Positions 36,206 to 50,975 of a stretch of DNA of 64,000 nt are shown here, piece after piece. The translations under genes were made by a program, and so were the position numbers. Under the pieces are notes generated by a model. That model saw only the letters and a program-made list of their open reading frames with translations. It was not told where the DNA came from and did no database searches. Position 1 is the first letter of the stretch. Every line of letters starts with the position of its first letter. The DNA lies in contig CBDBEU010000005.1 of the NCBI GenBank assembly GCA_965204565.1, positions 1,412,366 to 1,476,365 on the forward strand, read 5' to 3'. Source of the stretch: Hyphomicrobiales bacterium (lineage in GTDB: Bacteria; Pseudomonadota; Alphaproteobacteria; Rhizobiales; TMED25).

Positions 36206-36310
36206 TTTCTGGAGTCTCACACCGATTCCGCCGCCCCTGCGACATCTCTTTGTAAATTGGCGCATAAATTGGCGCACATCTTTTTTTAAAGCCCCGGAGT
36301 GCCTATATTA

Positions 36311-36675
36311 GGCCCGCCGGCTTGCCGGCTATGGTGATAAATGGGCGTCGTAATAAACCTGTCGGACCCGGGGGCAGTACCCGGCGCCTCCACCAAATGC
36401 CGTCAGGAGGCTGAATGACGGTATCTCTGTGGGGGCGAAACAGGATCGACGAGGGCGTAAAGGACGTACTTTTGCTCGGCATGGTACCGCCGTTATCGGG
36501 CCATTGTTATAGTTGCAAACGACAACTATGCTCCGGTGGCTCAGGCTGCGTAACGCAGTTTGATCATCGAAATTCAAGTCCTGGGCCGTAGCAGGCTCTA
36601 GGCGGGGTTTGGGGGGCACCTGGCAACAGAAGCCCTCCGCTTTTGCCTCCACTCCCATGCGCGGCGGCGCTTTTT
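36311..36675 (+). ncRNA. ssrA: tmRNA (ssrA), circularly permuted two-piece alphaproteobacterial type
   Basis: The acceptor 3-prime strand CGCCTCC-A-CCA (36385-36395) lies UPSTREAM of the acceptor 5-prime strand GGGGGCG (36431-37). The 7-bp pairing includes G3:U. T-arm CCGGG-GGCAGTA-CCCGG. Tag ORF GCA AAC GAC AAC TAT GCT CCG GTG GCT CAG GCT GCG TAA (36515-36553) = ANDNYAPVAQAA*. The outer boundaries are approximate. Confidence 0.85.
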
Positions 36676-36726: not shown

Positions 36727-38277
36727 GCCTATTCCGTTGAAAAAATTGCCTTAATATCGGCATTTTGGGCTGCTTCAGTTTCCCCATTGCTTTGGGAGAT
36801 TTATTGCGATGATGGGACCAAGGCAGGAAGCGCGGGCCGCATTGTTTTATGAGTTCTGTCTTGAAGATCATGTTCCAGCGATCATTTGTTGCGGTCGATA
36901 GATCGGTTTGCTGATCTGTCTGATATCCGTCCACACCCTGCATCGTTCTACAGTTCAACCGGTCGACCTTCTATTGATCCGGAACTTCTGATCCGAATGT
37001 TGCTGGTTGGTTATTGCATGGGCATTCGTTCTGAACGGCGACGATGCGAAGAGGTTCATCTCAACCTGGCCTGCCGTTGGTTCTGCCGTCTTGATCCGGC
37101 TGATCCCGTTCCCGACCATTCGACCTTCTCCAGGAACCGCCACGGTCGGTTCCGCGATAGTGGCCTTCTGCGTCATGTGTTTGAGACGGTAGGTGCCCGT
37201 TGTATTGCTGAGGGCTTTGTCAGTCAGCGGCCAGCGTCCTGCTGTTGATGCCAGTCTGATCGAAGCGGATACCAATCGGCAAAACTCCACATCGAAAGAA
37301 GAATGGCAGCCGGACAAGATTAATCACGAAGACGCACCCCGTGCGGTGCGCGAGTATTTGGACACGTTGGATGATGCAGCTTTTGGTGCAGCCACTCCGG
37401 TGCAGCCAGGGGTCACTTCCCGTTCCGACCCCGCATCGCAATGGACTGCAGCACGCAAAGACCCGGCGTATTTTGCATATTCTGCCAACGACATGATTGA
37501 TACGGGCAATGCTGCGATCCTGGATGTGGAAGCCACGCGATCAGTTCGACAAGCCGAACCTGGTGCCATGCAAACCATGATCGACAGAACTAAACACACC
37601 TTCGGCAGTCAACCCGAACGTATGATTGCAGATACCGCTTATGGAACCGGACCATTGCTGGAATGGCCGGTTCAGGAACGGGGTATGGCTCCGCATGGTC
37701 CGGTAGTCGATAAATCTGGCCGAACCGACGGAACTTTCGAACGTGTCGACTTTACCCATGATGATGAGCACGATCTTTATATCTGTCCTGGTGGGAAAGA
37801 ACTCAAACAAAGCCGTCGTGCCTTCACCAATCCCAGAACACCCGGGCCAGACAAGTATGGTGTGTTGCGTTACCGCGCCAAAAAGGCTGATTGCGAAGGC
37901 TGCCAACTCAAATCCCGGTGTTGCCCCAAAGAGCCTCAGCGCAAGGTAACTCGTTCCATCCATGAACCTTCACGCGATGCCGCCCGCAAGATCCACCAGA
38001 CCATCGACTATGCGATCTCATGCAAGTTGCGCAAAAAGATCGAGATGCTGCTTGCCCATCTCAAACGCATTCCGGGGCTGGGAAGGTTGCGATTACGAGG
38101 GCCCTGTGGGGCCAAAGACGAATTCCACCTTGCAGCAACCGCTCAAAACCTCAGAAAACTCGCAAAACTGATCAAAGCACCAGGCCCAATCAGTAAAACA
38201 GCAAAGAACGGCGCGTAGAAACAGTGTGATCATCAACCGGAAAGCGTCAGACAAGCGACTTTTTCAACGGAATAGGC
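36727..38277 (+). mobile_element. IS1182-family-like insertion sequence (1551 bp), transposase with at least 2 frameshifts
   Basis: Perfect 18-bp terminal IRs GCCTATTCCGTTGAAAAA (36727-44; reverse complement at 38260-77). MMGPRQEARAALFYEF.. / DRFADLSDIRPH..GRPSIDPELLIRMLLVGYCMGIRSERR..FSRNRHGRF / AVDASLIEAD..MIADTAYGTG..YICPGGKEL..CEGCQLKSRCC..LRLRGP..EFHLAATAQNLRKLAKL in three frames. Confidence 0.85.
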
Positions 38278-40405: not shown

Positions 40406-40502
40406 GCCTGAACCCCACACACCGAACGCATCGCTGATGCATAAAGAAATTATTAAACATCAGGTTACGCGAAATTGTTCCTCCAAATGGAGGAGCAGAT
40501 CA

Positions 40503-40880
40503 ATGAGTTCAAATGGCTATGTGTCACCAGAAAAATCAAACCCGGATCACGCGCAATTCGCATTGAAGATTAAGCGTGAGGGGAAAGGGGAAGGGACGGA
40601 TCTCCGGGTAAAGCTCGACGGGAATTTCGTCCGCCGCCGCCCGGGCAAAACCATGCGCGAGTTCGACGATGCATGCCTTGCGCCCGCGCCCGTTTTGGCA
40701 CCCGAGGGAATCAAGGCGATCCGCGAGTCTGAGCATGTCTCGCAGCCTGTTTTTGCGCGTTATCTCAATGTGTCGAAGAACCTCGTTTCCGACTGGGAGC
40801 GCGGCGCGAAGAAACCGGGCGGGCCTGCATTGCGGCTGCTTTCAATCATTCAACGTAATGGGCTCGACGCGGTGGCATAG
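40503..40880 (+). CDS. XRE-family HTH protein of the COG2944 / HigA-MqsA antitoxin-like type, no toxin partner
   Basis: C-terminal IKAIRESEHVSQPVFARYLNVSKNLVSDWERGAKKPGGPALRLLSIIQRNG. GGAGGA RBS before the ATG at 40503. AT-rich 5-prime end. Confidence 0.7.
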   Translation: MSSNGYVSPEKSNPDHAQFALKIKREGKGEGTDLRVKLDGNFVRRRPGKTMREFDDACLAPAPVLAPEGIKAIRESEHVSQPVFARYLNVSKNLVSDWERGAKKPGGPALRLLSIIQRNGLDAVA

Positions 40881-40886
40881 AAAATA

Positions 40887-40922
40887 TGCATCAAACAGAT
40901 TGATGCAGATTTTTAGTTGACA
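40887..40922 (+). promoter_or_regulatory. Perfect 8-bp inverted repeat (TGCATCAA-N5-TTGATGCA) followed by TTGACA, between the HTH gene and the RM operon
   Basis: IR at 40887-40907, T-run at 40909-13, TTGACA at 40917-22, which is 30 nt upstream of the half-hsdS ATG. It could be an operator plus -35 box, or a weak terminator. Confidence 0.35.
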
Positions 40923-40952: not shown

Positions 40953-41576
40953 ATGAAGCGTGAAGATGCACTCGATTCGACAATCCTGGTTGAGATGGCC
41001 TCCATCTCGGCTGGCTATCCGTTTCGGGGTAAGATTGATCAACTTCCCAAGGGCGATGTTGCTGTCATTCAGATGCGCAACGCTGATCCGGAAACCGGAA
41101 TCGATTGGCAGGGTCTAACCCGCGCTGAATTGCCGCAAAGTTCCGAAAAGGCGTTCCTGCATTCGGGCGACATTATTCTGTCTACGCGAGGCGGCAGGAA
41201 TTTTGCCTATTGCATTGAGAAGGGAAAGGGGCCGGTGGTTTGCTCACCGCACTTTTTCCTGATCCGGCTCATGCGAGATTCGATCCTGCCTGAATTTCTC
41301 GCATGGCAGATCAATCAAACGCACGCCCAAAACTATTTCACTGCGGGTGCCACAGGCTCTTACATTCTTAACCTGAAGCGCGCAGTCGTCGAACGACTTC
41401 CGATAGTGCTGCCATCCTTTGAACGGCAAAACTCCATAGTCCAAGCCGACAAAGCAGCGCGGGCCGAGCGCCTTGTTCTCAATCGGCTTATCCAGAACAG
41501 AACGAAAGAGATGAATGCCTTGGCCAAAGAGTTTTTGGGCAACGTCTCGGCATATCCAGAGCGAGAATCGACATGA
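40953..41576 (+). CDS. hsdS: Type I RM specificity subunit, half-size (single target-recognition domain plus one coiled-coil region)
   Basis: 207 aa; TRD followed by LPIVLPSFERQNSIVQADKAARAERLVLNRLIQNRTKEMNALAKEFL. The stop overlaps the hsdM ATG (ATGA). Confidence 0.8.
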   Translation: MKREDALDSTILVEMASISAGYPFRGKIDQLPKGDVAVIQMRNADPETGIDWQGLTRAELPQSSEKAFLHSGDIILSTRGGRNFAYCIEKGKGPVVCSPHFFLIRLMRDSILPEFLAWQINQTHAQNYFTAGATGSYILNLKRAVVERLPIVLPSFERQNSIVQADKAARAERLVLNRLIQNRTKEMNALAKEFLGNVSAYPEREST

Positions 41577-43081
41577 GCGACAGGATCGGACAGGACGAAG
41601 TGAACAAGGCCGTCTGGGCCGCCTGCGATACCTTTCGCGGAACGGTCTCGGCAGACGTCTACAAGGACTACGTCCTTAGCATGCTGTTTCTGAAATATAT
41701 CTCGGATGTGTGGCGGGACCATCATGACGAATACAAGAATCAATATGGCGACGAGCCCGAGCTGATCGCGGAACTGATGACGAACGAGCGCTTCGTCCTT
41801 CCCGAAAGCGCGAATTTCACCGCGCTCTTCAACGCTCGTTACGAGCCGGGGAATGGCGAACGGATCGACAAGGCGCTGCACGCCATCGAAGAAGCCAATA
41901 TCGTCAGGTTGCGCGATGTTTTCCAGGATATCAGCTTCAATTCGAACAAGCTGGGCGAGGAGAAGCAGAAGAACGACATCCTGCGCCATCTGCTGGAGGA
42001 TTTCGAGCGGCCCGAACTGAACATGCGTCCCTCGCGCATCGGCAATCTCGACGTGATCGGCAACGCCTATGAATTCCTCATCAAGAATTTCGCCGCCGAC
42101 GCCGGTCGCAAGGCCGGCGAGTTCTACACGCCTCCCGAAGTCTCGGAACTGATGGCCGAGATCATGGACATGGCCGAGGGCGAGGAAGCCTGCGATCCCG
42201 CCTGCGGTTCCGGCTCGCTGTTGATGAAGTGCGCTCGCCGCGTTCAGGCCAGGTTTGGCGGGTCTAAAAAATACGCACTGTTTGGGCAGGAATCGATCGG
42301 CAGCACCCAGGCGCTCGCCAGGATGAACATGTTCCTCCACGGCGAGGACAATCACCGCATCGAATGGGGCGACACAATTCGCAACCCCAAGCTGCTCGAT
42401 GGCGAGGACCGTCTGAAGCACTTCGATGTGGTCGTCGCCAATCCCCCTTTCAGCCTCGACAAATGGGGCCACGACACGGCAGAGAACGACAGGTTCGGAC
42501 GCTTCCGGCGCGGCGTGCCGCCCAGGACCAAGGGCGACTACGCCTTCATCCTCCATATGATCGAGACAATGAAGCCGAAGACCGGGCGGATGGCGGTGGT
42601 CGCGCCGCATGGCGTGCTGTTTCGCGGATCGAGCGAGGGCGGGATCAGGCGGAAACTGATCGAGGAGAACCTGCTCGAAGCGGTGATCGGCCTGCCGGAG
42701 AAGCTGTTCTACGGCACCGGCATTCCGGCCTGCATCCTGATCTTCCGCAAGACAAGGGCGGACGACAAGGTGCTGTTCGTCGATGCGAGCCGCGAGTTCA
42801 AATCGGGCAAGAACCAGAACCGGCTCGAAGAAGGGCATCTAGCGAAGATCGTCGAGACGTATCGCGAGCGGAAAACCGTCGACAGATACGCCTGTCTCGC
42901 CACGCCCGGGGAACTGGCCGAAAACGACTACAACCTCAACATTCCGCGCTATGTCGACACGTTCGAGGAAGAAGAGGAGATCGACCTCCTTGCCGTCCGC
43001 GCCGAACGGCTGAAACTGAAGGCGGAACTGGCCGAGTTGGAGAAGAAGATGGACGGCTATCTTCAGGAGCTTGGCTACTGA
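41573..43081 (+). CDS. hsdM: Type I RM N6-adenine DNA methyltransferase subunit
   Basis: 502 aa; FYTPPEVSELM, DPACGSGSLL (SAM motif I), VVANPPFS (motif IV). Confidence 0.95.
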   Translation: MSDRIGQDEVNKAVWAACDTFRGTVSADVYKDYVLSMLFLKYISDVWRDHHDEYKNQYGDEPELIAELMTNERFVLPESANFTALFNARYEPGNGERIDKALHAIEEANIVRLRDVFQDISFNSNKLGEEKQKNDILRHLLEDFERPELNMRPSRIGNLDVIGNAYEFLIKNFAADAGRKAGEFYTPPEVSELMAEIMDMAEGEEACDPACGSGSLLMKCARRVQARFGGSKKYALFGQESIGSTQALARMNMFLHGEDNHRIEWGDTIRNPKLLDGEDRLKHFDVVVANPPFSLDKWGHDTAENDRFGRFRRGVPPRTKGDYAFILHMIETMKPKTGRMAVVAPHGVLFRGSSEGGIRRKLIEENLLEAVIGLPEKLFYGTGIPACILIFRKTRADDKVLFVDASREFKSGKNQNRLEEGHLAKIVETYRERKTVDRYACLATPGELAENDYNLNIPRYVDTFEEEEEIDLLAVRAERLKLKAELAELEKKMDGYLQELGY

Positions 43082-44109
43082 TGGCGGGCGAACTCGTCCT
43101 TTACACCACCGAGGACGGCGATCTCGTTGTCCGCTTGCAGGAGCGGGACGGGAGCGTCCGGCTGACCCAATTGCAGCTTGCCGAACTCTTTCAAACCACG
43201 GTTTCCAATATCAACAAGCATATCAGGGGGGTATTGGACGATTGCGAGCAGGATGAGGCAACTATTGAGGAATACTCAATAGTTCAAACAGAGGGCAAGC
43301 GCAGCGTCGAGCGTCTGGTTGCGCATTACAGCCTCCCGATGATCCTTTCGGTCGGCTTTCGCGTGCGCTCCCCGCGCGGTGCACAGTTCCGCCGCTGGGC
43401 GGCAGAGACCCTGTCCGAATATATGGTCAAGGGCTTCGTCATGGATGACGACCGGCTGAAGGAGCCGGACAACGACTATTTCGAAGAACTGCTCGCCCGC
43501 ATCCGCGACATTCGCGCATCGGAAAAGCTGTTCTACAAGAAGGTGCTCGATATCTACGCGACTGCGGTGGATTATGATCCGAAGGCGGAGGCGAGCCAGC
43601 GGTTCTTCCAGACGGTGCAGAACAGGATGCACCACGCCGCCCATGGCCGGACGGCGGCGGAAACGAAGATTGCGCGGGCCGACAGTTCCAGGCCGATGAT
43701 GGGGCTGACCGGCTGGACCGGCGAGAAAAAGGGGCGTCTGCCCACGAAGCAGGATGCGCAGGTGGCGAAGAACCATCTGCAGGATGGCGAGATGGAGACG
43801 CTGAACCGCATCACCGTCGCCTTCCTCGAATTTGCCGAGGCCATGGCGACAGACCGAAAGCCGATGCACATGGCCGACTGGATCGCCAGGCTCGACGATT
43901 TCCTCAAACTGGGCGATCACAGGCCGCCGAGCGGTGCAGGCAAGGTTTCGGCCAGGGCGGCGACGAAAAAAGTGAGCGCCGAATATGACCGCTGGCATAA
44001 ACGAGCGATCAACGCGCCGAGCGCGATCGAGCGGCATTTTATCGAGGCCACCGCCAAGGTGAAGAAGCTCGCTGCGGAGAAGCCCGCCGGCAAGGGCGGT
44101 GCGGCATGA
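43081..44109 (+). CDS. rhuM: RhuM-family protein embedded between hsdM and hsdS
   Basis: MAGELVLYTTEDGDLVVRLQERDGSVRLTQLQLAELFQTTVSNINKHI...YSLPMILSVGFRVRSPRGAQFRRWAAETL...FYKKVLDIYATAVDYD. The ATG shares 1 nt with the hsdM TGA. The track ORF 42364..44109 is over-extended. Confidence 0.85.
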   Translation: MAGELVLYTTEDGDLVVRLQERDGSVRLTQLQLAELFQTTVSNINKHIRGVLDDCEQDEATIEEYSIVQTEGKRSVERLVAHYSLPMILSVGFRVRSPRGAQFRRWAAETLSEYMVKGFVMDDDRLKEPDNDYFEELLARIRDIRASEKLFYKKVLDIYATAVDYDPKAEASQRFFQTVQNRMHHAAHGRTAAETKIARADSSRPMMGLTGWTGEKKGRLPTKQDAQVAKNHLQDGEMETLNRITVAFLEFAEAMATDRKPMHMADWIARLDDFLKLGDHRPPSGAGKVSARAATKKVSAEYDRWHKRAINAPSAIERHFIEATAKVKKLAAEKPAGKGGAA

Positions 44110-45311
44110 TTCCGGAGGGGTGGAAGCAGACCGAACTCGGTGCCTTGGCTGACTTCGCTTCGGGTGGGACGCCTTCGAAGCAGAATGAGGCTTTCTGGGG
44201 TGGCTTCTTTCCTTGGGTTTCGGCCAAAGACCTGAAGAAGCATGTCATAAACAACGCTGAACTCTGCCTCACAGAAGAAGGCCGCAAAGTTGCCAAAACT
44301 GCTCCGATTGGCTCAGTTCTGGTTCTCGTTCGCGGTATGACACTCCTCAAGGATGTGCCCATCGGCTATGTGGCGGAACCAGTTGCATTCAATCAAGATA
44401 TCAAAGCCTTGGTCGCGAAGAGCTACGTCGCCCCAAAATTCTTGGCTTATTTACTTGTTTCATTGAGACGCCCGCTCATGACATTAGTCAACACTGCCAA
44501 TCATGGGACAGGTAGGCTCGATACCGATCTGCTCAAATCGTTTCCAGTCGTCCTGCCGTCATTTGTAGAGCAGTGCCGAATCGCAAAGACACTGGAAACG
44601 TGGGACCGCGCCATCGAGACGGTCGAGGCGCTGATCGCCAATGCCCGCGCGCAAAAACAGGCGCTGATGCAGCAACTCCTCCCGCAAGGCGCCACCCCGC
44701 CCAAAAAGCGTCTCCCCGGCTTTTCGGGGGAGTGGCGCGAAATGAAGCTAGGGGGAATGGCAAAAGTTGTGATGGGATCGTCACCGCCCTCATCTGCCTA
44801 CAACGAGACCGAAATAGGGCTGCCGTTGATCCAAGGCAATGCCGACATTAAGAACCGTCAGTCCGCACCACGTGTTCATACCAGCGAGATTACCCAAGTT
44901 TGCGAACCCAAGGATATTTTGTTCAGCGTGCGAGCACCCGTCGGCGAAATATCCATTGCGATCCACCATGCGTGTATCGGACGAGGCATTGCAGCAATCC
45001 GTCCGCATAGCGGAAGCGACGCTGACTTCTTGTATTTTTGCTTGCTTGCCGCAGAATCTCGATGGGCCCGCTTATCTCAAGGAAGCACCTTTCAGGCAGT
45101 GAACAGCAAGGATCTTAGGGGGTCCATAGTTTTCGCGCCCTCGAAAGAGACTGAACGTGAAGCAATCGGAGCGGCGGTTCGTGAGTCGCAATCGGCCAAA
45201 GACAACCTGCAATCCCAACTCGCCGCCCTCCGCCGGGAAAAGGCCGCGCTGATGCAGCAACTGCTCACCGGCAAGCGGCGGGTGAAACTCCCGGAAAGCG
45301 AGGTAGCGTAA
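44106..45311 (+). CDS. hsdS: Type I RM specificity subunit, full length (two TRDs)
   Basis: 401 aa; two variable TRDs separated by LPSFVEQCRIAKTLETWDRAIETVEALIANARAQKQALMQQLL. It ends with LAALRREKAALMQQLLTGKRRV. Confidence 0.9.
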   Translation: MIPEGWKQTELGALADFASGGTPSKQNEAFWGGFFPWVSAKDLKKHVINNAELCLTEEGRKVAKTAPIGSVLVLVRGMTLLKDVPIGYVAEPVAFNQDIKALVAKSYVAPKFLAYLLVSLRRPLMTLVNTANHGTGRLDTDLLKSFPVVLPSFVEQCRIAKTLETWDRAIETVEALIANARAQKQALMQQLLPQGATPPKKRLPGFSGEWREMKLGGMAKVVMGSSPPSSAYNETEIGLPLIQGNADIKNRQSAPRVHTSEITQVCEPKDILFSVRAPVGEISIAIHHACIGRGIAAIRPHSGSDADFLYFCLLAAESRWARLSQGSTFQAVNSKDLRGSIVFAPSKETEREAIGAAVRESQSAKDNLQSQLAALRREKAALMQQLLTGKRRVKLPESEVA

Positions 45312-46972
45312 TGGCTAAGACCAGATCATTTTCCATATTTCTTCTGAAAGACGATGCAACCCCTGATAATGCCTTGAAGGATGTGAAGGATGGCAATGCG
45401 CTGAAAGCGAATGCGGCGGCCAACAATCTGCCAGAAGGCGCGCGTTTATTTCTTTTGGACAAACCGCCTAATCCGCCTTGGTGGAAAGCCTACTTTGACG
45501 TCAAACAAGACCTGTTTCAGGGCTCAAAGGGCGCGCTTGTTTTCGTTCCAGCATCGGGCCGGTGGTTCGCGCTGTCGTTTGGCCATGTCTATCATAATTT
45601 GAAGGACACGAGTTACGAATATGATTTTGGTCTTCGCGTCACACTGAACTGCGTTAACCCGGAGGAGTTGAAAAGCACGGACGTACTGGAACCCAGCGGC
45701 GCAAAACGGCAAAGAACGCAGCTGCCGACAGTCGGCGATCTCACCTTTTTTGATGTCGATGCCGACAGCACAATTTTGAAAAGCCTCACTGGCAAGGTGA
45801 AAGCGGAGCATAAGGAAGTATTCAAGAGCGCAACCGGCTCCAGCAATATCCGCATTTCCTCCGAAGCAGCGCCGAATGAACTGATCGGACTTTGTGAGAA
45901 TCTATATGCTCTGTATCAGGAAGAGACCTACAAGACGGCGTTTCCGGACATACAGAACATCGCGCCGGTACGCGATCCCGTAACCATTGAGAATCTGAAT
46001 GGGCGATTGCTTGAAGCCTTCCGTGAAAAGGATGATGGCTTATCGTTATCGGTCCCTGAGATTGTCGATCATGGCGATGGTATCTGGGGAACATTTACTG
46101 GGGCACGCGCTGGCAAGGTGTATGATGATATTTTCATCGATCAGTATTACGAATATCTTGAAGATAAAAACGTCGGATTGAACACTATCGGCATTGACGT
46201 ACTAAAGCGCCATCAGCTTGCATTGACGAACGAAGATGGTAGCCACATCAGAAACAGCTACAGCATTCTGAAATGTCTGATATTCGATACGACGTTGGAA
46301 AACGGGACACAAAGCTATCATCTTCGTGAAGGGCATTGGTATCTAATCGACGCCGATTATATTGCTCGCCTGAAGACGTATCTTGACCCTCTATGCGAAG
46401 ACACGACGTTGCCGGATTTCGATCACGCAAATGAAGGCGAGTATAATATCGCCGCAGCGGCAGCAGAAAATGGCCGGGTGTGCATGGACAAGAAAAGTAT
46501 CACACCAAAAGGTCAAAAACCGGTCGAGCCTTGCGATATTTATGAAGTGGCCGATGACAAGGCGGTCCTCCATCACGTGAAAATATCGACGCTATCTGCA
46601 CAGCTTAGCCACTTATTCAACCAAGGCATTAACTCGGTCAATTTGATCCGGTCAGAAAGTGAGTCCTTGGAAAAAATGAAGGCGCTGGCTGGAGATGGTT
46701 TGGCTGATGCGGAGAAGGCAGAGTCAATCGCTCCTCTTGAGAATGACAAGTTTCGGATCGTTTATGATATCGTCACGCATAAGGATAAAGCTGACAAATC
46801 GCTAAATCTGCCGCTCTTCTCTCGCATCAGCTTAATGCGCTGCATGAAAGAATTCAGGCGCATGGGCATTGAAGCGGAATATTGCTTTATTCCTAACAAA
46901 TTTCCGAAAAATGCGGGAAAAAAGCGCAAGAAGAAACCCAAAGCTAGTCCCGCCGACGGGGCACAAAATTGA
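45311..46972 (+). CDS. Uncharacterised 553-aa protein between hsdS and hsdR (tentatively TIGR04141 / DUF6119-like; possible degenerate PD-(D/E)xK nuclease core)
   Basis: Overlaps both neighbours (TAATG at 45309-13; TTGA at 46969-72). SFSIFLLK, FALSFGHVYHNL, YDFGLRVTLNCV, EPCDIYEV-x10-LHHVKISTLSAQLSHLFNQG (aa 406-438), Lys-rich tail KKRKKKPK. Hand-counted GC is 42-47% on two 60-nt lines. Confidence 0.6.
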   Translation: MAKTRSFSIFLLKDDATPDNALKDVKDGNALKANAAANNLPEGARLFLLDKPPNPPWWKAYFDVKQDLFQGSKGALVFVPASGRWFALSFGHVYHNLKDTSYEYDFGLRVTLNCVNPEELKSTDVLEPSGAKRQRTQLPTVGDLTFFDVDADSTILKSLTGKVKAEHKEVFKSATGSSNIRISSEAAPNELIGLCENLYALYQEETYKTAFPDIQNIAPVRDPVTIENLNGRLLEAFREKDDGLSLSVPEIVDHGDGIWGTFTGARAGKVYDDIFIDQYYEYLEDKNVGLNTIGIDVLKRHQLALTNEDGSHIRNSYSILKCLIFDTTLENGTQSYHLREGHWYLIDADYIARLKTYLDPLCEDTTLPDFDHANEGEYNIAAAAAENGRVCMDKKSITPKGQKPVEPCDIYEVADDKAVLHHVKISTLSAQLSHLFNQGINSVNLIRSESESLEKMKALAGDGLADAEKAESIAPLENDKFRIVYDIVTHKDKADKSLNLPLFSRISLMRCMKEFRRMGIEAEYCFIPNKFPKNAGKKRKKKPKASPADGAQN

Positions 46973-49900
46973 CCATCACCCCCAACACCGCCGAGCTCTA
47001 CAGCTCCCACATCCCCGCACTTGCCACGCTGGTCTCGCTGGGCTGGGACTATCTCCCGCCCGAGGACTGCCTCGCGGCGCGCGGCGGCAATCAGGGGGTG
47101 GTGCTGCGCGATGTGCTGGTCGAGCAACTGCGGCGGCGAACTTTCGAGTACAAGGGGCGGAGCTGTCCGCTCTCGACCAATGCGATCGACCAGATCGTTC
47201 GCGAGCTGACCTCGCCCGCTCTCAACGAAGGGCTGATCGCCGCCAACGAGAAGCTCTACAACGCCATCACGCTGGGCATCACCGTCACCGAATTCGTCGA
47301 CGGCAGGAAGCACAGCGTCACCGTGCCGATTATCGACTGGGCGCATCCGCCGGCGAACAGCTTTATCGTCAGCGAGGAGATGGAAGTGCTGGCCGTGCCG
47401 GGCACGCATACGCGGCGGCCCGATATTGTCGGCTTCGTCAACGGCATTCCGCTGCTGGTGATCGAGGCCAAGCGGCCCGACAGCGGCAACCCAGACAAGT
47501 CGACGGTGGATGAAGGCATCAGCCAGACGATCCGCAATCAGGGGCAGGAGGAAATCCCGCATTTGTTCGCCCATGCGCATCTGCTGTTGTCCATCGGCAT
47601 GACCGACGGCCGTTACGGCACCACCAGGACCCCGCGCAAATTCTGGTCGCAATGGCGTGAGGAGGAATTTTCGGAAGACCATTTCCGCCGGATCAAGAAC
47701 GCGGCGCGAGCGACCGATCCGCGCGCTGCCATCCTGAAGAACCACATCAGCGAGGTGCGCGATCACGTCCAGCACCTGTGGAGCGACGAGCAGGCGGTGA
47801 CCGCGCAGGATCGCCTGCTGATCGGCCTCTGCTCGCCGAAGCGATTGCTGGAATTCGTTCGGTCTTATGTCCTGTTCGACCGCAAGGTGGACAAGATCGT
47901 CGCCCGCCATCAGCAGTTCTTCGGTATCCGTGCGCTGCTGGATCAGATCAGCCGGATCAGGCCGGACGGAGCGCGAGAGGGCGGGGTCATCTGGCACACC
48001 ACCGGTTCTGGCAAGAGCTTCACAATGGTGATGCTGTGCAAGGCACTATTAATTCATGAGAAGTTGAAAGCGTGCCGTCTGGTGGCGGTCACGGACAGGC
48101 GCAATCTGGAAAAGCAGCTGGCCGGGAATTTCCAGACCGGCGGCGCATTAGGCTCTGATGTCGGCTCAAGAAACGCCTCGAAGGCCAAAGCGCAATCTGG
48201 ACGCGACCTGGCCAAACTTATCGGCAAGGGCGTCGAGCGCATCATCTTCACCATCATCAACAAGTTTGGCAGTGCCGCTCGCTATCCGGAGTGCAGGAAT
48301 GACACTGCAGACATGATTGTCTTGGTCGACGAGGGGCACAGGAGCCAGGGCGGCGAGAATCACGAGCGGATGCGCAAAGCGCTGCCCAATGCCGCCTATG
48401 TCGCCTTCACCGGCACGCCTTTGCTGAAGGACGACAAGACCGCAAACAGGTTTGGTCGCATCGTTCACGCATATACAATGAAGGACGCGGTTTCCGACGG
48501 AACCGTAACGCCGATTCTATATGAAGAGCGAAAGCCGATTCTCGCCGTCAATGAGCAAGCAACCGACAACTGGTTTGAGAAGGTCACTGGCGGTCTGTCC
48601 GACGAGCAGAAAAGCGATCTCAAAAAGAAGTTCGGCACCAAGGGAGCGGTTTATGGTTCAGACGACCGGATCGCCCTTATCGCGCTCGATATTGCCACCC
48701 ACTTCAAGGAGAATTTCAAGGACCTCGACCCTGGTCTGAAGGGGCAGCTTGCGACCGACTCAAAGCGGTCTGCCATCCGTTATAAAAAGGCGCTCGATGC
48801 GACCGGGCTGGTAAGCAGCGCCATCGTGATTTCGCCGCCCGATACGCGCGAAGGCCATTCGGAGGTCGATGCGGCAGAACTTCCGGAAGTTCAGCAGTGG
48901 TGGAAGGAGAACGTCAAGGGAGATGCCGAAGACTACGAGCGCCGGGTTATTGAAGACTTCTCCACTGAAGGCCGTCCCGATATCTTAATCGTCGTCGATA
49001 AACTGCTCACCGGCTTTGATGAGCCACGCAACGCTGTCCTTTACATCGACAAGAAGCTTGAGCAGCATAATTTGATCCAGGCAATCGCCCGCGTGAACCG
49101 GTTGCATGAGCAGAAAAAATACGGCCTTCTCATTGACTATCGTGGCATCCTGAAGGCTTTGGACACCGCGCTTACCGAATATCAAGACCTCGCGGATCGG
49201 ACTCAAGGAGGTTTTGATCTCAAGGATATAGACGAGCTCTACGCCGATGTCAGCACCGAGTATAAGCGCCTGCCAAAACTTCATGCCGAACTCCGGGCGA
49301 TCTTCAATCCTGTCAAAAACAGGGTCGACATTGAGCAGTACAGACAGTTAATGGTGCCAAATATCCGCGAAACGGATGACGGAACTCCAGTCGATCAAAA
49401 TCAGAAGATTAGAGAAGACTTCTACGAAGCTCTTACTGCCTACGGCATGTGTCTCAAGATCGCCCTCGGATCGCGCTCATTCTTTGAGGACTTGTCGACA
49501 AGCGAGGCCCGGATCGCGGAATACAAGCGCGACCTGAAGTTCTTCACCAGCCTGCGAAAAATCGTAAGGCAGGACGCTCAGGAAACGGTCGACTATAGCG
49601 CATATGAGGATCAGATCAGTCGCCTGGTCGATCGCTATGTCGCAGGTGAAGACGTTGAGAACGTCGATGGCGTATTGATCGTCAACGACCTCGGGAAGCA
49701 GGAGCCTGCGGAGTCCTGGTCAGCGGAAAAGACGCGCAATGAAACAGATATCATCCGCTCCCGTATGCGCAAGACGATAGAACAGGAACTTGCTGATGAT
49801 CCCTATGCGCAGCGATTCTTCTCTGATCTTCTGAAGCGCGCAATCGCGGAAGCGTCAGCGCTATTCGACCACCCCTATAAGCAGTATGTCTTGTTCAGGG

Positions 49901-50253
49901 ATCTGGAACAAAAGCTCGCGTCAAAGCGCATCGACGACATACCGGACGAGTTGGAAGGGCGCTCCCATGCAAGTGCATATTTCGGTATCATTCGCCTCGA
50001 AATAGCGGACGATATTGCGATTAAAGAACAGCGCAAAGCGCTCGTTGAGGCCTCTCTCGATATGGAAAAGGCCGTCGAACAGGCGATTGCTGAGAATTCG
50101 CTCAATACTGCCAACATCGAGGCGGCAATTCGCAAGGCTTTACTGCCCCGCCTATTCAGCCTGGTCGGCTTGGACAAAGCGAAAATCATCACCGAGCGGA
50201 TCGTTGAAATAACACGCACAGGACTCGCGCGCGGCAGTTCCAAACGACCATGA
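46969..50253 (+). CDS. hsdR: Type I RM restriction/translocase subunit
   Basis: 1094 aa; WHTTGSGKSFTMV (motif I), LVDEGHRSQ (DEAH-like motif II), FTGTP, helicase C-terminal domain. Apparent TTG start. Confidence 0.93.
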   Translation: MTITPNTAELYSSHIPALATLVSLGWDYLPPEDCLAARGGNQGVVLRDVLVEQLRRRTFEYKGRSCPLSTNAIDQIVRELTSPALNEGLIAANEKLYNAITLGITVTEFVDGRKHSVTVPIIDWAHPPANSFIVSEEMEVLAVPGTHTRRPDIVGFVNGIPLLVIEAKRPDSGNPDKSTVDEGISQTIRNQGQEEIPHLFAHAHLLLSIGMTDGRYGTTRTPRKFWSQWREEEFSEDHFRRIKNAARATDPRAAILKNHISEVRDHVQHLWSDEQAVTAQDRLLIGLCSPKRLLEFVRSYVLFDRKVDKIVARHQQFFGIRALLDQISRIRPDGAREGGVIWHTTGSGKSFTMVMLCKALLIHEKLKACRLVAVTDRRNLEKQLAGNFQTGGALGSDVGSRNASKAKAQSGRDLAKLIGKGVERIIFTIINKFGSAARYPECRNDTADMIVLVDEGHRSQGGENHERMRKALPNAAYVAFTGTPLLKDDKTANRFGRIVHAYTMKDAVSDGTVTPILYEERKPILAVNEQATDNWFEKVTGGLSDEQKSDLKKKFGTKGAVYGSDDRIALIALDIATHFKENFKDLDPGLKGQLATDSKRSAIRYKKALDATGLVSSAIVISPPDTREGHSEVDAAELPEVQQWWKENVKGDAEDYERRVIEDFSTEGRPDILIVVDKLLTGFDEPRNAVLYIDKKLEQHNLIQAIARVNRLHEQKKYGLLIDYRGILKALDTALTEYQDLADRTQGGFDLKDIDELYADVSTEYKRLPKLHAELRAIFNPVKNRVDIEQYRQLMVPNIRETDDGTPVDQNQKIREDFYEALTAYGMCLKIALGSRSFFEDLSTSEARIAEYKRDLKFFTSLRKIVRQDAQETVDYSAYEDQISRLVDRYVAGEDVENVDGVLIVNDLGKQEPAESWSAEKTRNETDIIRSRMRKTIEQELADDPYAQRFFSDLLKRAIAEASALFDHPYKQYVLFRDLEQKLASKRIDDIPDELEGRSHASAYFGIIRLEIADDIAIKEQRKALVEASLDMEKAVEQAIAENSLNTANIEAAIRKALLPRLFSLVGLDKAKIITERIVEITRTGLARGSSKRP

Positions 50254-50975
50254 TTGTGCACTACGGAAATGACGAAGTGACCTGTCGGATCAGCCGAAAT
50301 TCAGCACTTGCCGGTCGCGTTCGCATCCACGTTCTCCCGGATGGTGAAGTTGAGATCGAAGCGCCGGAAACTGAGTCAATCTCTAGCATTGCGTTTGCGG
50401 CGCAAAAGAAGGCGGGATGGATTTTTCGGCACCGTGTGAAGGCGCTTGCTGCTCAAAAACATGCCAAGCCGAGAGAGTTCGTAAGCGGTGAAACCCATTT
50501 CTATCTTGGACGCCGCTACAAGCTTGTCGTGCACGAGAAAGCGGGAACGCCTTCCAGTGTAAAGCTCTTGCGGGGAAGGATTGAAGTTACACTTCCAGTC
50601 GCTGATCCAGCGGCTGTTAGACGACGTTTGGGTGCCTGGTATTCCGAGCGTGCTTCCGCGTATCTAGGGGCGAAATTGCAAGAGATCGCAGCAAGAATTT
50701 CGTGGATTAAGGGGGAGCCCCGATTCAAGTTGATACGAATGCAAACGCAATGGGGGAGCTGCTCGCCAGAGGGAGTCATTTATCTCAACCCTGCACTTGT
50801 GAGGGTGCCCAGGCACTGCATCGAATACGTGATTGTTCATGAACTTTGTCACCTATGCGAGCACAATCACAGCAAGCGCTTCTACGAGCTTCTCGATCGA
50901 AGCGTTCCTAGATGGAGATCAACAAAATGCGAGTTGGATGAGCTTGCCGAGCTTGTTTTGGCAGGCAATTTTTGA
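50250..50975 (+). CDS. DUF45 / YgjP-like M48-family zinc metallopeptidase coupled to hsdR
   Basis: 241 aa; QWGSCSPEGVIYLNPAL...YVIVHELCHLCEHNHSKRFY (HExxH). The ATG overlaps the hsdR stop (ATGA). Confidence 0.85.
   Translation: MIVHYGNDEVTCRISRNSALAGRVRIHVLPDGEVEIEAPETESISSIAFAAQKKAGWIFRHRVKALAAQKHAKPREFVSGETHFYLGRRYKLVVHEKAGTPSSVKLLRGRIEVTLPVADPAAVRRRLGAWYSERASAYLGAKLQEIAARISWIKGEPRFKLIRMQTQWGSCSPEGVIYLNPALVRVPRHCIEYVIVHELCHLCEHNHSKRFYELLDRSVPRWRSTKCELDELAELVLAGNF

Follow-up and report, generated by a model that had tools for sequence, protein, structure and literature searches.

A DUF6119 family protein nested between hsdS and hsdR of a Type I restriction-modification operon is a candidate defence effector with a putative nuclease domain

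What kind of protein is encoded by a long open reading frame (ORF) that lies between the specificity gene and the restriction gene of a Type I restriction-modification (RM) operon, and does it depend on the enzyme that surrounds it? The question is raised by a locus from a Hyphomicrobiales bacterium (assembly GCA_965204565.1, contig CBDBEU010000005.1, positions 1,412,366 to 1,476,365), analysed here as a stretch of 64,000 nucleotides that is called the window and to which all window coordinates refer. In the ORF listing of the window, an ATG-started frame of 553 amino acids occupies positions 45311-46972 of the plus strand, between the ORFs 44106-45311 and 46969-50253, and it encodes a member of the DUF6119 family. 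The gene is a strong candidate for a defence gene, and its action is probably nuclease-based. The explanation that we favour, and to which we give an even chance, is that DUF6119 is an autonomous mobile single-protein effector of the defence type, with a metal-dependent nuclease at its C-terminus, which acts beside the RM enzyme as co-translated cargo.

A preliminary description, made from the letters of this DNA, had proposed the family TIGR04141/DUF6119, and this assignment proved right: both profiles are matched over their full length and far above their cut-offs. The Pfam family DUF6119 (PF19614) gives an E-value of 4.2e-139 with 465 bits (cut-off 27; profile positions 1-524 of 524), and NCBIfam TIGR04141 gives 7.9e-135 with 450 bits (cut-off 35; positions 1-516 of 516). 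An exhaustive search of 1.84 billion representatives assigned to the family 2,835 clusters at 50% identity (E-values up to 0.001). Its entry in PHROGs, phrog_18579, is annotated as 'unknown function'. A literature search on the family (DUF6119, TIGR04141, PF19614 and IPR026487) returned incidental mentions only and no paper discussing it, and the part of the supplementary tables of the guilt-by-embedding survey that was covered here (10.1101/2024.01.29.577857) does not mention it.

The operon comprises seven genes, more than first described, namely a half-size hsdS, hsdM, a RhuM-family gene, hsdS, DUF6119, hsdR and ygjP; the neighbours had been read as hsdM, hsdS and hsdR by eye, in agreement with Pfam and NCBIfam. 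The DUF6119 gene overlaps the genes on both sides, exactly as first observed. The TAA stop codon of hsdS and the ATG of DUF6119 have one base in common (TAATG; GCGTAATGGCT), and the TGA stop of DUF6119 overlaps the TTG start of hsdR (TTGA; AAAATTGACC). This TTG is a credible start codon, because in homologous operons the position aligned with it is the ATG of an ATGA overlap. The genes of the operon, half-size hsdS through ygjP, are joined by six stop/start overlaps, one at each junction (ATGA, TGATG, ATGA, TAATG, TTGA and ATGA). The proposed co-expression of the ORF with the restriction enzyme is supported, since overlapping junctions are kept in many loci.

For the comparative analysis, one genome per species was scanned and the best 80 of 178 relatives were analysed. 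Embedded and solo copies were called by tblastn with the RM proteins of the window, simple ORF calls and a Pfam scan of the two nearest ORFs on either flank. The preliminary description had made its defence hypothesis depend on the neighbours of homologues, and a strong enrichment in or beside Type I RM and other defence genes was found. The nested order half-S, M, (RhuM), S, DUF6119, R, YgjP is present in 34 of the 80 genomic homologues (~43%), which come from at least seven phyla; the hosts include Alphaproteobacteria, Gammaproteobacteria (Peristeroidobacter, Legionellales), Smithella, Bdellovibrionales, Pirellulaceae, Cyclobacteriaceae, Nitrospirae, Aminicenantes and Rickettsiales. The usual junctions in nested loci are a 4-nucleotide overlap between S and DUF6119 (15 loci) and ATGA between DUF6119 and R. 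As a genome typically has one or two Type I operons, we estimate that a random gene would fall into one of them in far less than 1% of cases.

Plasmid copies with only 26-29% identity to the window protein (Mameliella, Mesorhizobium, Paracoccus albus) occupy the same slot with overlapping junctions. Two other plasmid copies, from S. meliloti pSymB (locus L081) and Rhizobium sp. AB2/73 (L088), are 83% identical to each other and adjoin unrelated Type I systems: the former is downstream of M-S-R-SprT, the latter is divergent from an EcoAI-family R-M-S. These contexts hint at an affinity for Type I RM generally, or simply at common defence islands. Defence-type neighbours were also found in four of the six plasmid contexts without an RM link, and they include a NACHT protein, a TIR protein with a deaminase, Shedu and UvrD/AAA, and an S8 peptidase with a TrlF ATPase and a GIY-YIG nuclease. 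On the whole, solo copies appear to be located for the most part among genes of defence or of mobile elements.

The hsdS-hsdR slot accommodates many other genes. In operons sampled by their HsdR, it holds GmrSD_N, Abi_2, HAD/PDC-S34, DUF3800, RhuM and DUF4917 genes, a DpnII/MboI-type restriction endonuclease, a YhcG PD-(D/E)xK nuclease, DUF4062 and HerA. Extra cargo in the operons carrying DUF6119 includes DUF4917/AbiH-like, HD-dGTPase-like, CBASS (SMODS + SAVED) and Schlafen/AlbA_2 genes. Given this varied defence cargo, the hsdS-hsdR junction, and to a lesser degree the hsdM-hsdS junction, is a hotspot in which DUF6119 is one of many occupants. An Aminicenantes operon (L050:5587-7914) has a CBASS pair (SAVED effector and SMODS/CD-NTase) between rhuM and hsdS as well as DUF6119 in the hsdS-hsdR slot, so that this single Type I operon carries three cargo modules.

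The nesting of other genes in Type I operons has precedents. TgvAB and RloF are nested in this way, and TgvAB works without HsdR activity (PMC11411939); further candidates in PADLOC come from the guilt-by-embedding survey of Payne et al. 2024 (10.1101/2024.01.29.577857). DUF6119 resembles TgvAB/GmrSD-like genes, RloF and the PADLOC candidates in being Type I-nested in the same orientation, and it has its slot in common with GmrSD-like, Abi_2, CBASS and PDC-S05/S34 genes of sister operons. As guilt by embedding demands of a candidate, it is nested between known defence-system genes on the same strand. Like these systems, DUF6119 also has solo homologues. In sequence it is unrelated to all of them, and it is not in PADLOC-DB v2. 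The protein fits this kind of nested gene but matches no known member of it.

The closest precedent by position is the anticodon nuclease PrrC, with which the preliminary description compared the ORF. Tyndall et al. are said to have reported in 1994 the exact gene order, with prrC between hsdS and hsdR. In the EcoprrI Type IC system PrrC is, as is DUF6119, the product of a single gene in this slot, in the same orientation, co-expressed and plausible as a second-line effector; prrC is documented as a gene embedded in a Type IC locus (PMC12707154). By analogy, DUF6119 would be kept latent by the HsdMSR complex that is translated from its own transcript, and the toxic nuclease would be freed when a phage anti-restriction protein (Ocr, ArdA or Stp-like) disables the enzyme. 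We consider such a guard unlikely, and of the analogy the common slot stands whereas latency imposed by the RM complex is not favoured. Besides the position, the guard model draws on the translational coupling on both sides that is conserved in many loci, and on the precedents for RM-linked toxic effectors given by PrrC and Ronin (10.1101/2023.04.06.535777). It stays alive because of the high share of nested copies, the capture of the slot by subfamilies as distant as those on the plasmids, and the related copies beside two unrelated Type I systems. On the other side, PrrC has an N-terminal ABC-ATPase-like domain with a Walker A motif, whereas DUF6119 has no [AG]xxxxGK[ST] motif and so no P-loop, no sequence homology to PrrC and no match to the PADLOC models of PrrC; in Pfam, NCBIfam and PADLOC its sole matches are DUF6119 and TIGR04141. 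Moreover, PrrC is almost exclusively embedded in Type I RM (10.1101/2024.01.29.577857), unlike DUF6119, for which 46 of the 80 close genomic homologues are solo, in that Type I genes of this kind were not detected in their surroundings.

The RM link of DUF6119 is optional, not obligatory. Embedded and solo copies are intermingled in a neighbour-joining tree with 81 tips, for which parsimony requires at least 12 switches, and embedded/solo pairs occur within distant subfamilies (61% identity in one, 73% in another). No alignment columns separating embedded from solo copies were found, which speaks against a guard, and the last 30 residues contain on average 7.6 lysines and arginines in embedded copies versus 7.0 in solo ones. 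Inheritance together with the enzyme is loose. Among 28 operons, the Spearman correlation of pairwise identities is 0.91 for HsdR and HsdM, as compared to 0.36 for DUF6119 and HsdR and 0.43 for DUF6119 and HsdM; in loci L064 and L067, HsdR is 87-88% identical to that of the window and DUF6119 just 47%. Such weak co-divergence, a further point against the guard model, implies that the DUF6119 gene is exchanged within the slot.

The gene is also rare in its slot. Among 80 metagenomic operons sampled by HsdR, DUF6119 was found upstream of hsdR in one (L159). Of the 42 operons whose contig contains hsdS as well as hsdR, 12 are cargo-free and 26 have more than 600 nucleotides of other DNA between the two genes. 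DUF6119 is carried by just ~2% of the operons of this RM family, which does not favour a guard, and neither does the housing in the same slot of kinds that act independently of HsdR, such as TgvAB. The flanks of the 46 solo loci, two ORFs per side, are heterogeneous, with scattered MT-A70, AAA_30, AbiEii, integrase, resolvase, TrwC and TrbI genes, and in these loci no conserved partner gene stands beside the solo copies. On the Paracoccus aminophilus plasmid pAMI8 (L082:6664-9656), a hypothetical gene of 446 amino acids shares its last 4 nucleotides with the beginning of a solo DUF6119 gene; from this case, some solo copies may have a partner gene.

PARIS consists of an ABC ATPase and a TOPRIM protein. 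Together with PrrC and Ronin, it has been described as an RM-linked back-up system; Ronin has an hsdMS decoy without hsdR, and its RonA is a membrane toxin of 61 amino acids (10.1101/2023.04.06.535777). The parallel between DUF6119 and Ronin or PARIS, both of which sense anti-restriction proteins, is one of concept, namely a back-up tied to components of Type I RM. Neither system resembles DUF6119: the operon of the window has an intact hsdR, and its cargo is 553 amino acids long. A variant of the guard model that is compatible with the solo copies would make DUF6119 a second guard nuclease, unrelated to PrrC, whose solo copies guard RM systems elsewhere or are rewired to other triggers; this too seems improbable to us.

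The case for a nuclease is built on conservation and predicted structure. The blocks picked by eye in the preliminary description coincide with the truly conserved ones in an alignment of 32 sequences. Its invariant residues include F7 S8 I9 L11 L12 K13, F90 G91, Y104 D105 F106 G107 and L112 N113 in the N-terminal part, and E406 P407 C408 D409, H421, K424 and S433 H434 L435 F436 N437 Q438 G439 towards the C-terminus. Conservation across the family was assessed with 87 representatives that are 25-50% identical. Among the residues of the window protein, W58, F106, E375, Y378, E406, K424, L435 and Q438 are invariant in this sample, and D409, H422, C408, N379, D393, S433 and H434 are conserved in at least 90% of the representatives. 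The core residues are retained in copies with 17-29% identity, including those from Enterococcus and a Pseudomonas phage. By the distribution of these residues, most of the polar positions conserved across the family fall into the C-terminal domain. A homologue search with a diverse profile mostly returned the same close relatives, and little diversity was gained for structure prediction.

The full-length AlphaFold2 model has a mean predicted local distance difference test (pLDDT) of 77.8 and a predicted template modelling score (pTM) of 0.75, and it divides the protein into three domains. The N-terminal alpha/beta domain (residues 1-120; 45311..45670, plus strand, as all parts of the gene below) contains the family-wide conserved W58, F106, L11-L12-K13, F90-G91, G107 and N113. 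It is followed by a loop (residues 121-160; 45671..45790; ...PSGAKRQRTQLP...FFDVDAD...) and by a middle alpha/beta domain seen in the same model (residues 161-345; 45791..46345). A Foldseek search with the full-length model found no structural match for the N-terminal (1-120) or the middle (161-345) domain. The loop has a pLDDT of 24-37, and the 32-sequence alignment shows D124, L126, P128, R133, Q134, R135, Q137, L144, F147, D148, D150 and D152 of it as invariant; Q137 and the adjacent G161 are conserved in at least 90% of the family-wide sample. Near-invariant among close homologues yet poorly modelled, it looks like a functional loop that may fold just upon binding, and it is a candidate for binding a ligand, a nucleic acid or a partner.

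The C-terminal domain (residues 362-530; 46394..46900) is putatively restriction-endonuclease-like, as suggested by its model, its conservation and weak fold matches. Modelled alone (residues 345-545), this part reaches a pLDDT of 91.8 and a pTM of 0.86. The order of its elements is a helix (375-385, with E375, Y378 and N379), a short strand with C391 and D393, a hairpin of strands 410-414 and 417-424 with D409 at its start and H422-V-K424 at its end, a helix (429-448, with S433, H434 and Q438), and two further strand-helix units. In the model this order is compatible with the alpha-beta-beta-beta-alpha core of restriction endonucleases. From the predicted strand register of the hairpin, D409 should face H422 and be near K424. 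The best active-site candidates by conservation form the motif E406-x-x-D409 ... H422-x-K424 ... S433-H434 ... Q438 (46526..46624). A Lys/Arg-rich tail (NKFPKNAGKKRKKKPKA; 46901..46945) is present in embedded and solo copies alike and likely binds nucleic acid. The proteins of one DUF6119 clade (L063, L064, L066-L068, L070, L071, L076 and L077), which mixes embedded and solo copies, are 610-690 amino acids long and have an extra C-terminal extension of ~70 amino acids past the basic tail (...GTRFRMVVKVADDGSLSTHFGWPFELAA in L064, with a similar end in L077).

Foldseek was run with the full-length model against the PDB, and with the model of the C-terminal domain against the PDB and BFVD. The named top matches in the three lists, all of them non-significant, are almost all PD-(D/E)xK proteins: arenavirus and bunyavirus cap-snatching endonucleases, HincII, OkrAI, N.BspD6I, the R2 endonuclease domain, Can2, ERCC4, RecU, proteins annotated as 'restriction endonuclease' and one 'PD-(D/E)XK endonuclease-like' protein. 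With Can2, the cap-snatching endonucleases, the R2 domain, HincII and OkrAI, DUF6119 shares the predicted order of a helix, three strands and a helix, with D409 at the hairpin start opposite H422-x-K424, E375 upstream and Q438 downstream. It differs from them in having His for Asp/Glu, three helices between the third and fourth core strands, and no Pfam clan. Some cap-snatching endonucleases use His as a metal ligand. A comparison by hhalign with the PD-(D/E)xK domain of the operon's own HsdR gave a probability of 0.2%, equal to that of negative controls, and is uninformative. An alternative reading of the hairpin 410-424 with helix 429-448 as a His-Me/HNH beta-beta-alpha motif was rejected: the conserved His ends the second strand, not the first, and HNH proteins are absent from the fold matches. 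We conclude that a PD-(D/E)xK-type fold of the C-terminal domain is likely, though undemonstrated. Of the degenerate nuclease core that had been suspected at D409...H-V-K424, the conserved polar cluster and a compatible predicted topology were borne out, whereas the structure search gave no significant match.

Several observations weigh against an autonomous nuclease effector. As to the nuclease, Foldseek gave no significant match (best E-values 0.014 in the PDB and 0.004 in BFVD, template modelling scores mostly <=0.37), and a search of PDB sequences, with the single sequence and with a profile of 87 sequences, yielded zero matches even at an E-value of 10. The acid of (D/E)xK is replaced by His, and by Cys in part of the window's clade ('LHCVK'), and the conserved C391, C408, H422 and H434 could form a structural metal site instead. 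As to the defence role, no model of PADLOC-DB v2.0.0 matches the DUF6119 protein of the window, and the literature search found no published experiment on any member of the family. As to autonomy, the share of Type I-nested copies and the capture of the slot by distant subfamilies exceed those of most independent defence genes; the high share could reflect a real functional dependence on the RM enzyme, and divergent RM systems farther off would escape our embedded/solo calling.

The first of these groups of observations favours a protein that is associated with defence or mobile elements without being a nuclease. Its C-terminal cluster would bind a metal, a nucleotide or another ligand, and the protein would be a sensor, a binder or another enzyme; the missing significant match to any nuclease in sequence or structure, the His or Cys where PD-(D/E)xK requires an acid and the Cys/His set suited to a structural metal site would all be natural. 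We think this rather unlikely, since the named Foldseek matches are overwhelmingly PD-(D/E)xK proteins in all three lists, the E...D...xK...Q pattern and the order of elements fit the nuclease fold, and a basic tail is present.

The composition and contexts of the gene bear on its mobility. It had been described as foreign to its neighbours on the basis of hand counts for single lines, which are right to rounding (46.7% and 41.7% GC in DUF6119, as against 68.3% in hsdM and 75.0% at the start of hsdR). The whole gene is indeed AT-richer than its neighbours, with a GC content of 48.1% and 53.2% at third codon positions, compared with 59.1% and 79.9% for hsdM, 56.9% and 71.0% for hsdR, and 58.0% GC for the whole window. 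The ygjP gene (51.9%) and the half-size hsdS (52.4%) are low as well; the operon is therefore a compositional mosaic and DUF6119 is not its sole low-GC gene. In other genomes, DUF6119 is AT-richer than its surroundings in 41 of 43 solo loci (49% vs 58% GC) and in most embedded loci, which fits a horizontally moving gene. Two plasmid copies have solely insertion sequence (IS) elements or integrases as neighbours, and conjugation genes lie near some copies. The temperate Pseudomonas phage vB_PaeS-D14B (BK061476) carries a homologue (L087:5692-7401, phrog_18579) between two integrase genes near its genome end, and such a site is typical for prophage defence or moron genes. In another locus (L054:11592-14294), an IS element with a DDE_5 transposase just downstream of DUF6119 splits hsdR and leaves DUF6119 intact.

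Mobility of this kind would also suit a selfish gene that serves its mobile element, either as a homing-type nuclease directed at empty hsdS/hsdR junctions or as a plasmid or integrative-conjugative-element factor for addiction or exclusion. The sporadic distribution with consistent AT-richness, the many independent gains and losses, the presence on conjugative plasmids and beside integrases and IS elements, and the discordance with the phylogeny of the host operons all agree with it. Homing endonucleases, however, are not typically as long as ~550 amino acids with three conserved domains, the gene is joined to its neighbours by exact and conserved stop/start overlaps and not by recent insertion scars, solo copies have no common flank, and the other occupants of the slot are defence genes, not homing genes. 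We regard a selfish role as very unlikely. Least credible of all is a role within the Type I enzyme itself, as an accessory subunit or as a regulator of, for example, restriction, assembly or restriction alleviation, for although translational coupling between hsdS and hsdR would yield stoichiometric production and the association recurs with several Type I families, DUF6119 is missing from most operons of this RM family, most close homologues have no RM system nearby, and the gene does not co-diverge with the RM subunits.

An autonomous effector carried as cargo of the operon would work as follows. DUF6119 would be made together with the restriction enzyme through the overlapping stop and start codons. 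Residues ~362-530 would form a metal-dependent restriction-endonuclease-like nuclease centred on E375, D393, E406, D409, H422-x-K424 and Q438, where His takes the place of the usual acid, and the Lys/Arg tail would aid nucleic-acid binding. The N-terminal two-thirds, including the loop 121-160, may sense an infection cue or hold the nuclease off. The protein would thereby provide a second defence layer beside RM, for example against phages that escape Type I restriction, by direct attack or by abortive infection, and it would be neither an obligate subunit nor a prisoner of the RM complex.

The remaining genes of the operon, all on the plus strand, are those of a complete Type I system with a second cargo gene. 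The first is the half-size hsdS (40953..41576; 207 amino acids, one target-recognition domain), matched by PADLOC Specificity_I at an E-value of 1.2e-19 and weakly by Pfam Methylase_S; it overlaps hsdM by ATGA and is kept upstream of hsdM in most related operons. The methyltransferase gene hsdM (41573..43081) matches N6_Mtase (E 9.4e-105), HsdM_N and TIGR00497. The RhuM-family gene (43081..44109) matches Virulence_RhuM (E 5.1e-98) and the PADLOC defence candidate PDC-S05 (E 5.4e-120), is joined to hsdM by TGATG and to hsdS by ATGA, and occurs in about half of the related operons; as it is nested between hsdM and hsdS, the operon of the window holds two separate cargo genes. The full-length specificity gene hsdS (44106..45311; 401 amino acids) matches Methylase_S in two stretches (E 8.2e-26). 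Because it coexists with a half-size hsdS, the enzyme may have two alternative specificities, for instance with a half-S dimer on a symmetric site. Downstream of DUF6119 (45311..46972) come the TTG-started restriction gene hsdR (46969..50253; HSDR_N, SWI2_SNF2, T1R_D3-like and TIGR00348) and a gene for a YgjP/SprT-like zinc metallopeptidase (50250..50975; YgjP-like, E 6.2e-55), which overlaps hsdR by ATGA. In 80 metagenomic operons of this HsdR family, hsdR is followed by a YgjP partner in almost every case with sequence at that position.

A scan for promoters and terminators gave site counts in the region that are not above the shuffled background; its sole noteworthy item is a terminator-like hairpin at the 3' end of the operon (50942..50966, plus strand; 10-bp stem and T-run), for which the evidence is weak. 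Just upstream of the operon, a helix-turn-helix (HTH) gene of 147 amino acids (40437..40880, plus strand; HTH_3, with weak MqsA-antitoxin and C-protein-like matches) is a possible regulator; tblastn found a match upstream of related operons in just one of 80 loci, i.e. the gene is not conserved there. A perfect bidirectional hairpin (40887-40907) lies 3' of it. Two ORFs on the opposite strand (46762-47997 and 41360-42838) were set aside by judgement as shadow ORFs of high-GC genes.

The operon is an insert of ~10.6 kb amid housekeeping genes, and no integrase was found around it in the window. One flank contains thyA, a permuted transfer-messenger RNA (tmRNA) gene, a transposase remnant, sspB and fumC, and the other contains an AsmA-like gene, uvrD and prmA. 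The tmRNA gene is in two pieces (36303-36644, with the tag ANDNYAPVAQAA), is followed by the DDE transposase remnant (37193-38218), and is of a permuted type that we take to be associated with Alphaproteobacteria. The RM operon lies ~4 kb further along, past sspB and fumC.

The window and the comparative data give a large multi-phylum family a concrete testable role. DUF6119 is among the genes most strongly nested in Type I RM operons, and E375, D409, H422, K424 and Q438 make up its candidate active site. Its large family, strong association and explicit candidate active site make it a good experimental target; the finding is no great surprise, given that there are already hundreds of embedded candidates still to be tested. 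The hsdS-hsdR junction of operons of the HsdR-YgjP class is a useful place to discover further systems. If the role proposed here is true, DUF6119 would add a single-gene system to the known anti-phage defences, and probably a new branch to the restriction-endonuclease-like nucleases. Were the guard version true, a nested nuclease that guards a Type I enzyme would be known for just the second time, and the guarding of RM by nested nucleases would be a widespread multi-phylum strategy and not a peculiarity of EcoprrI.

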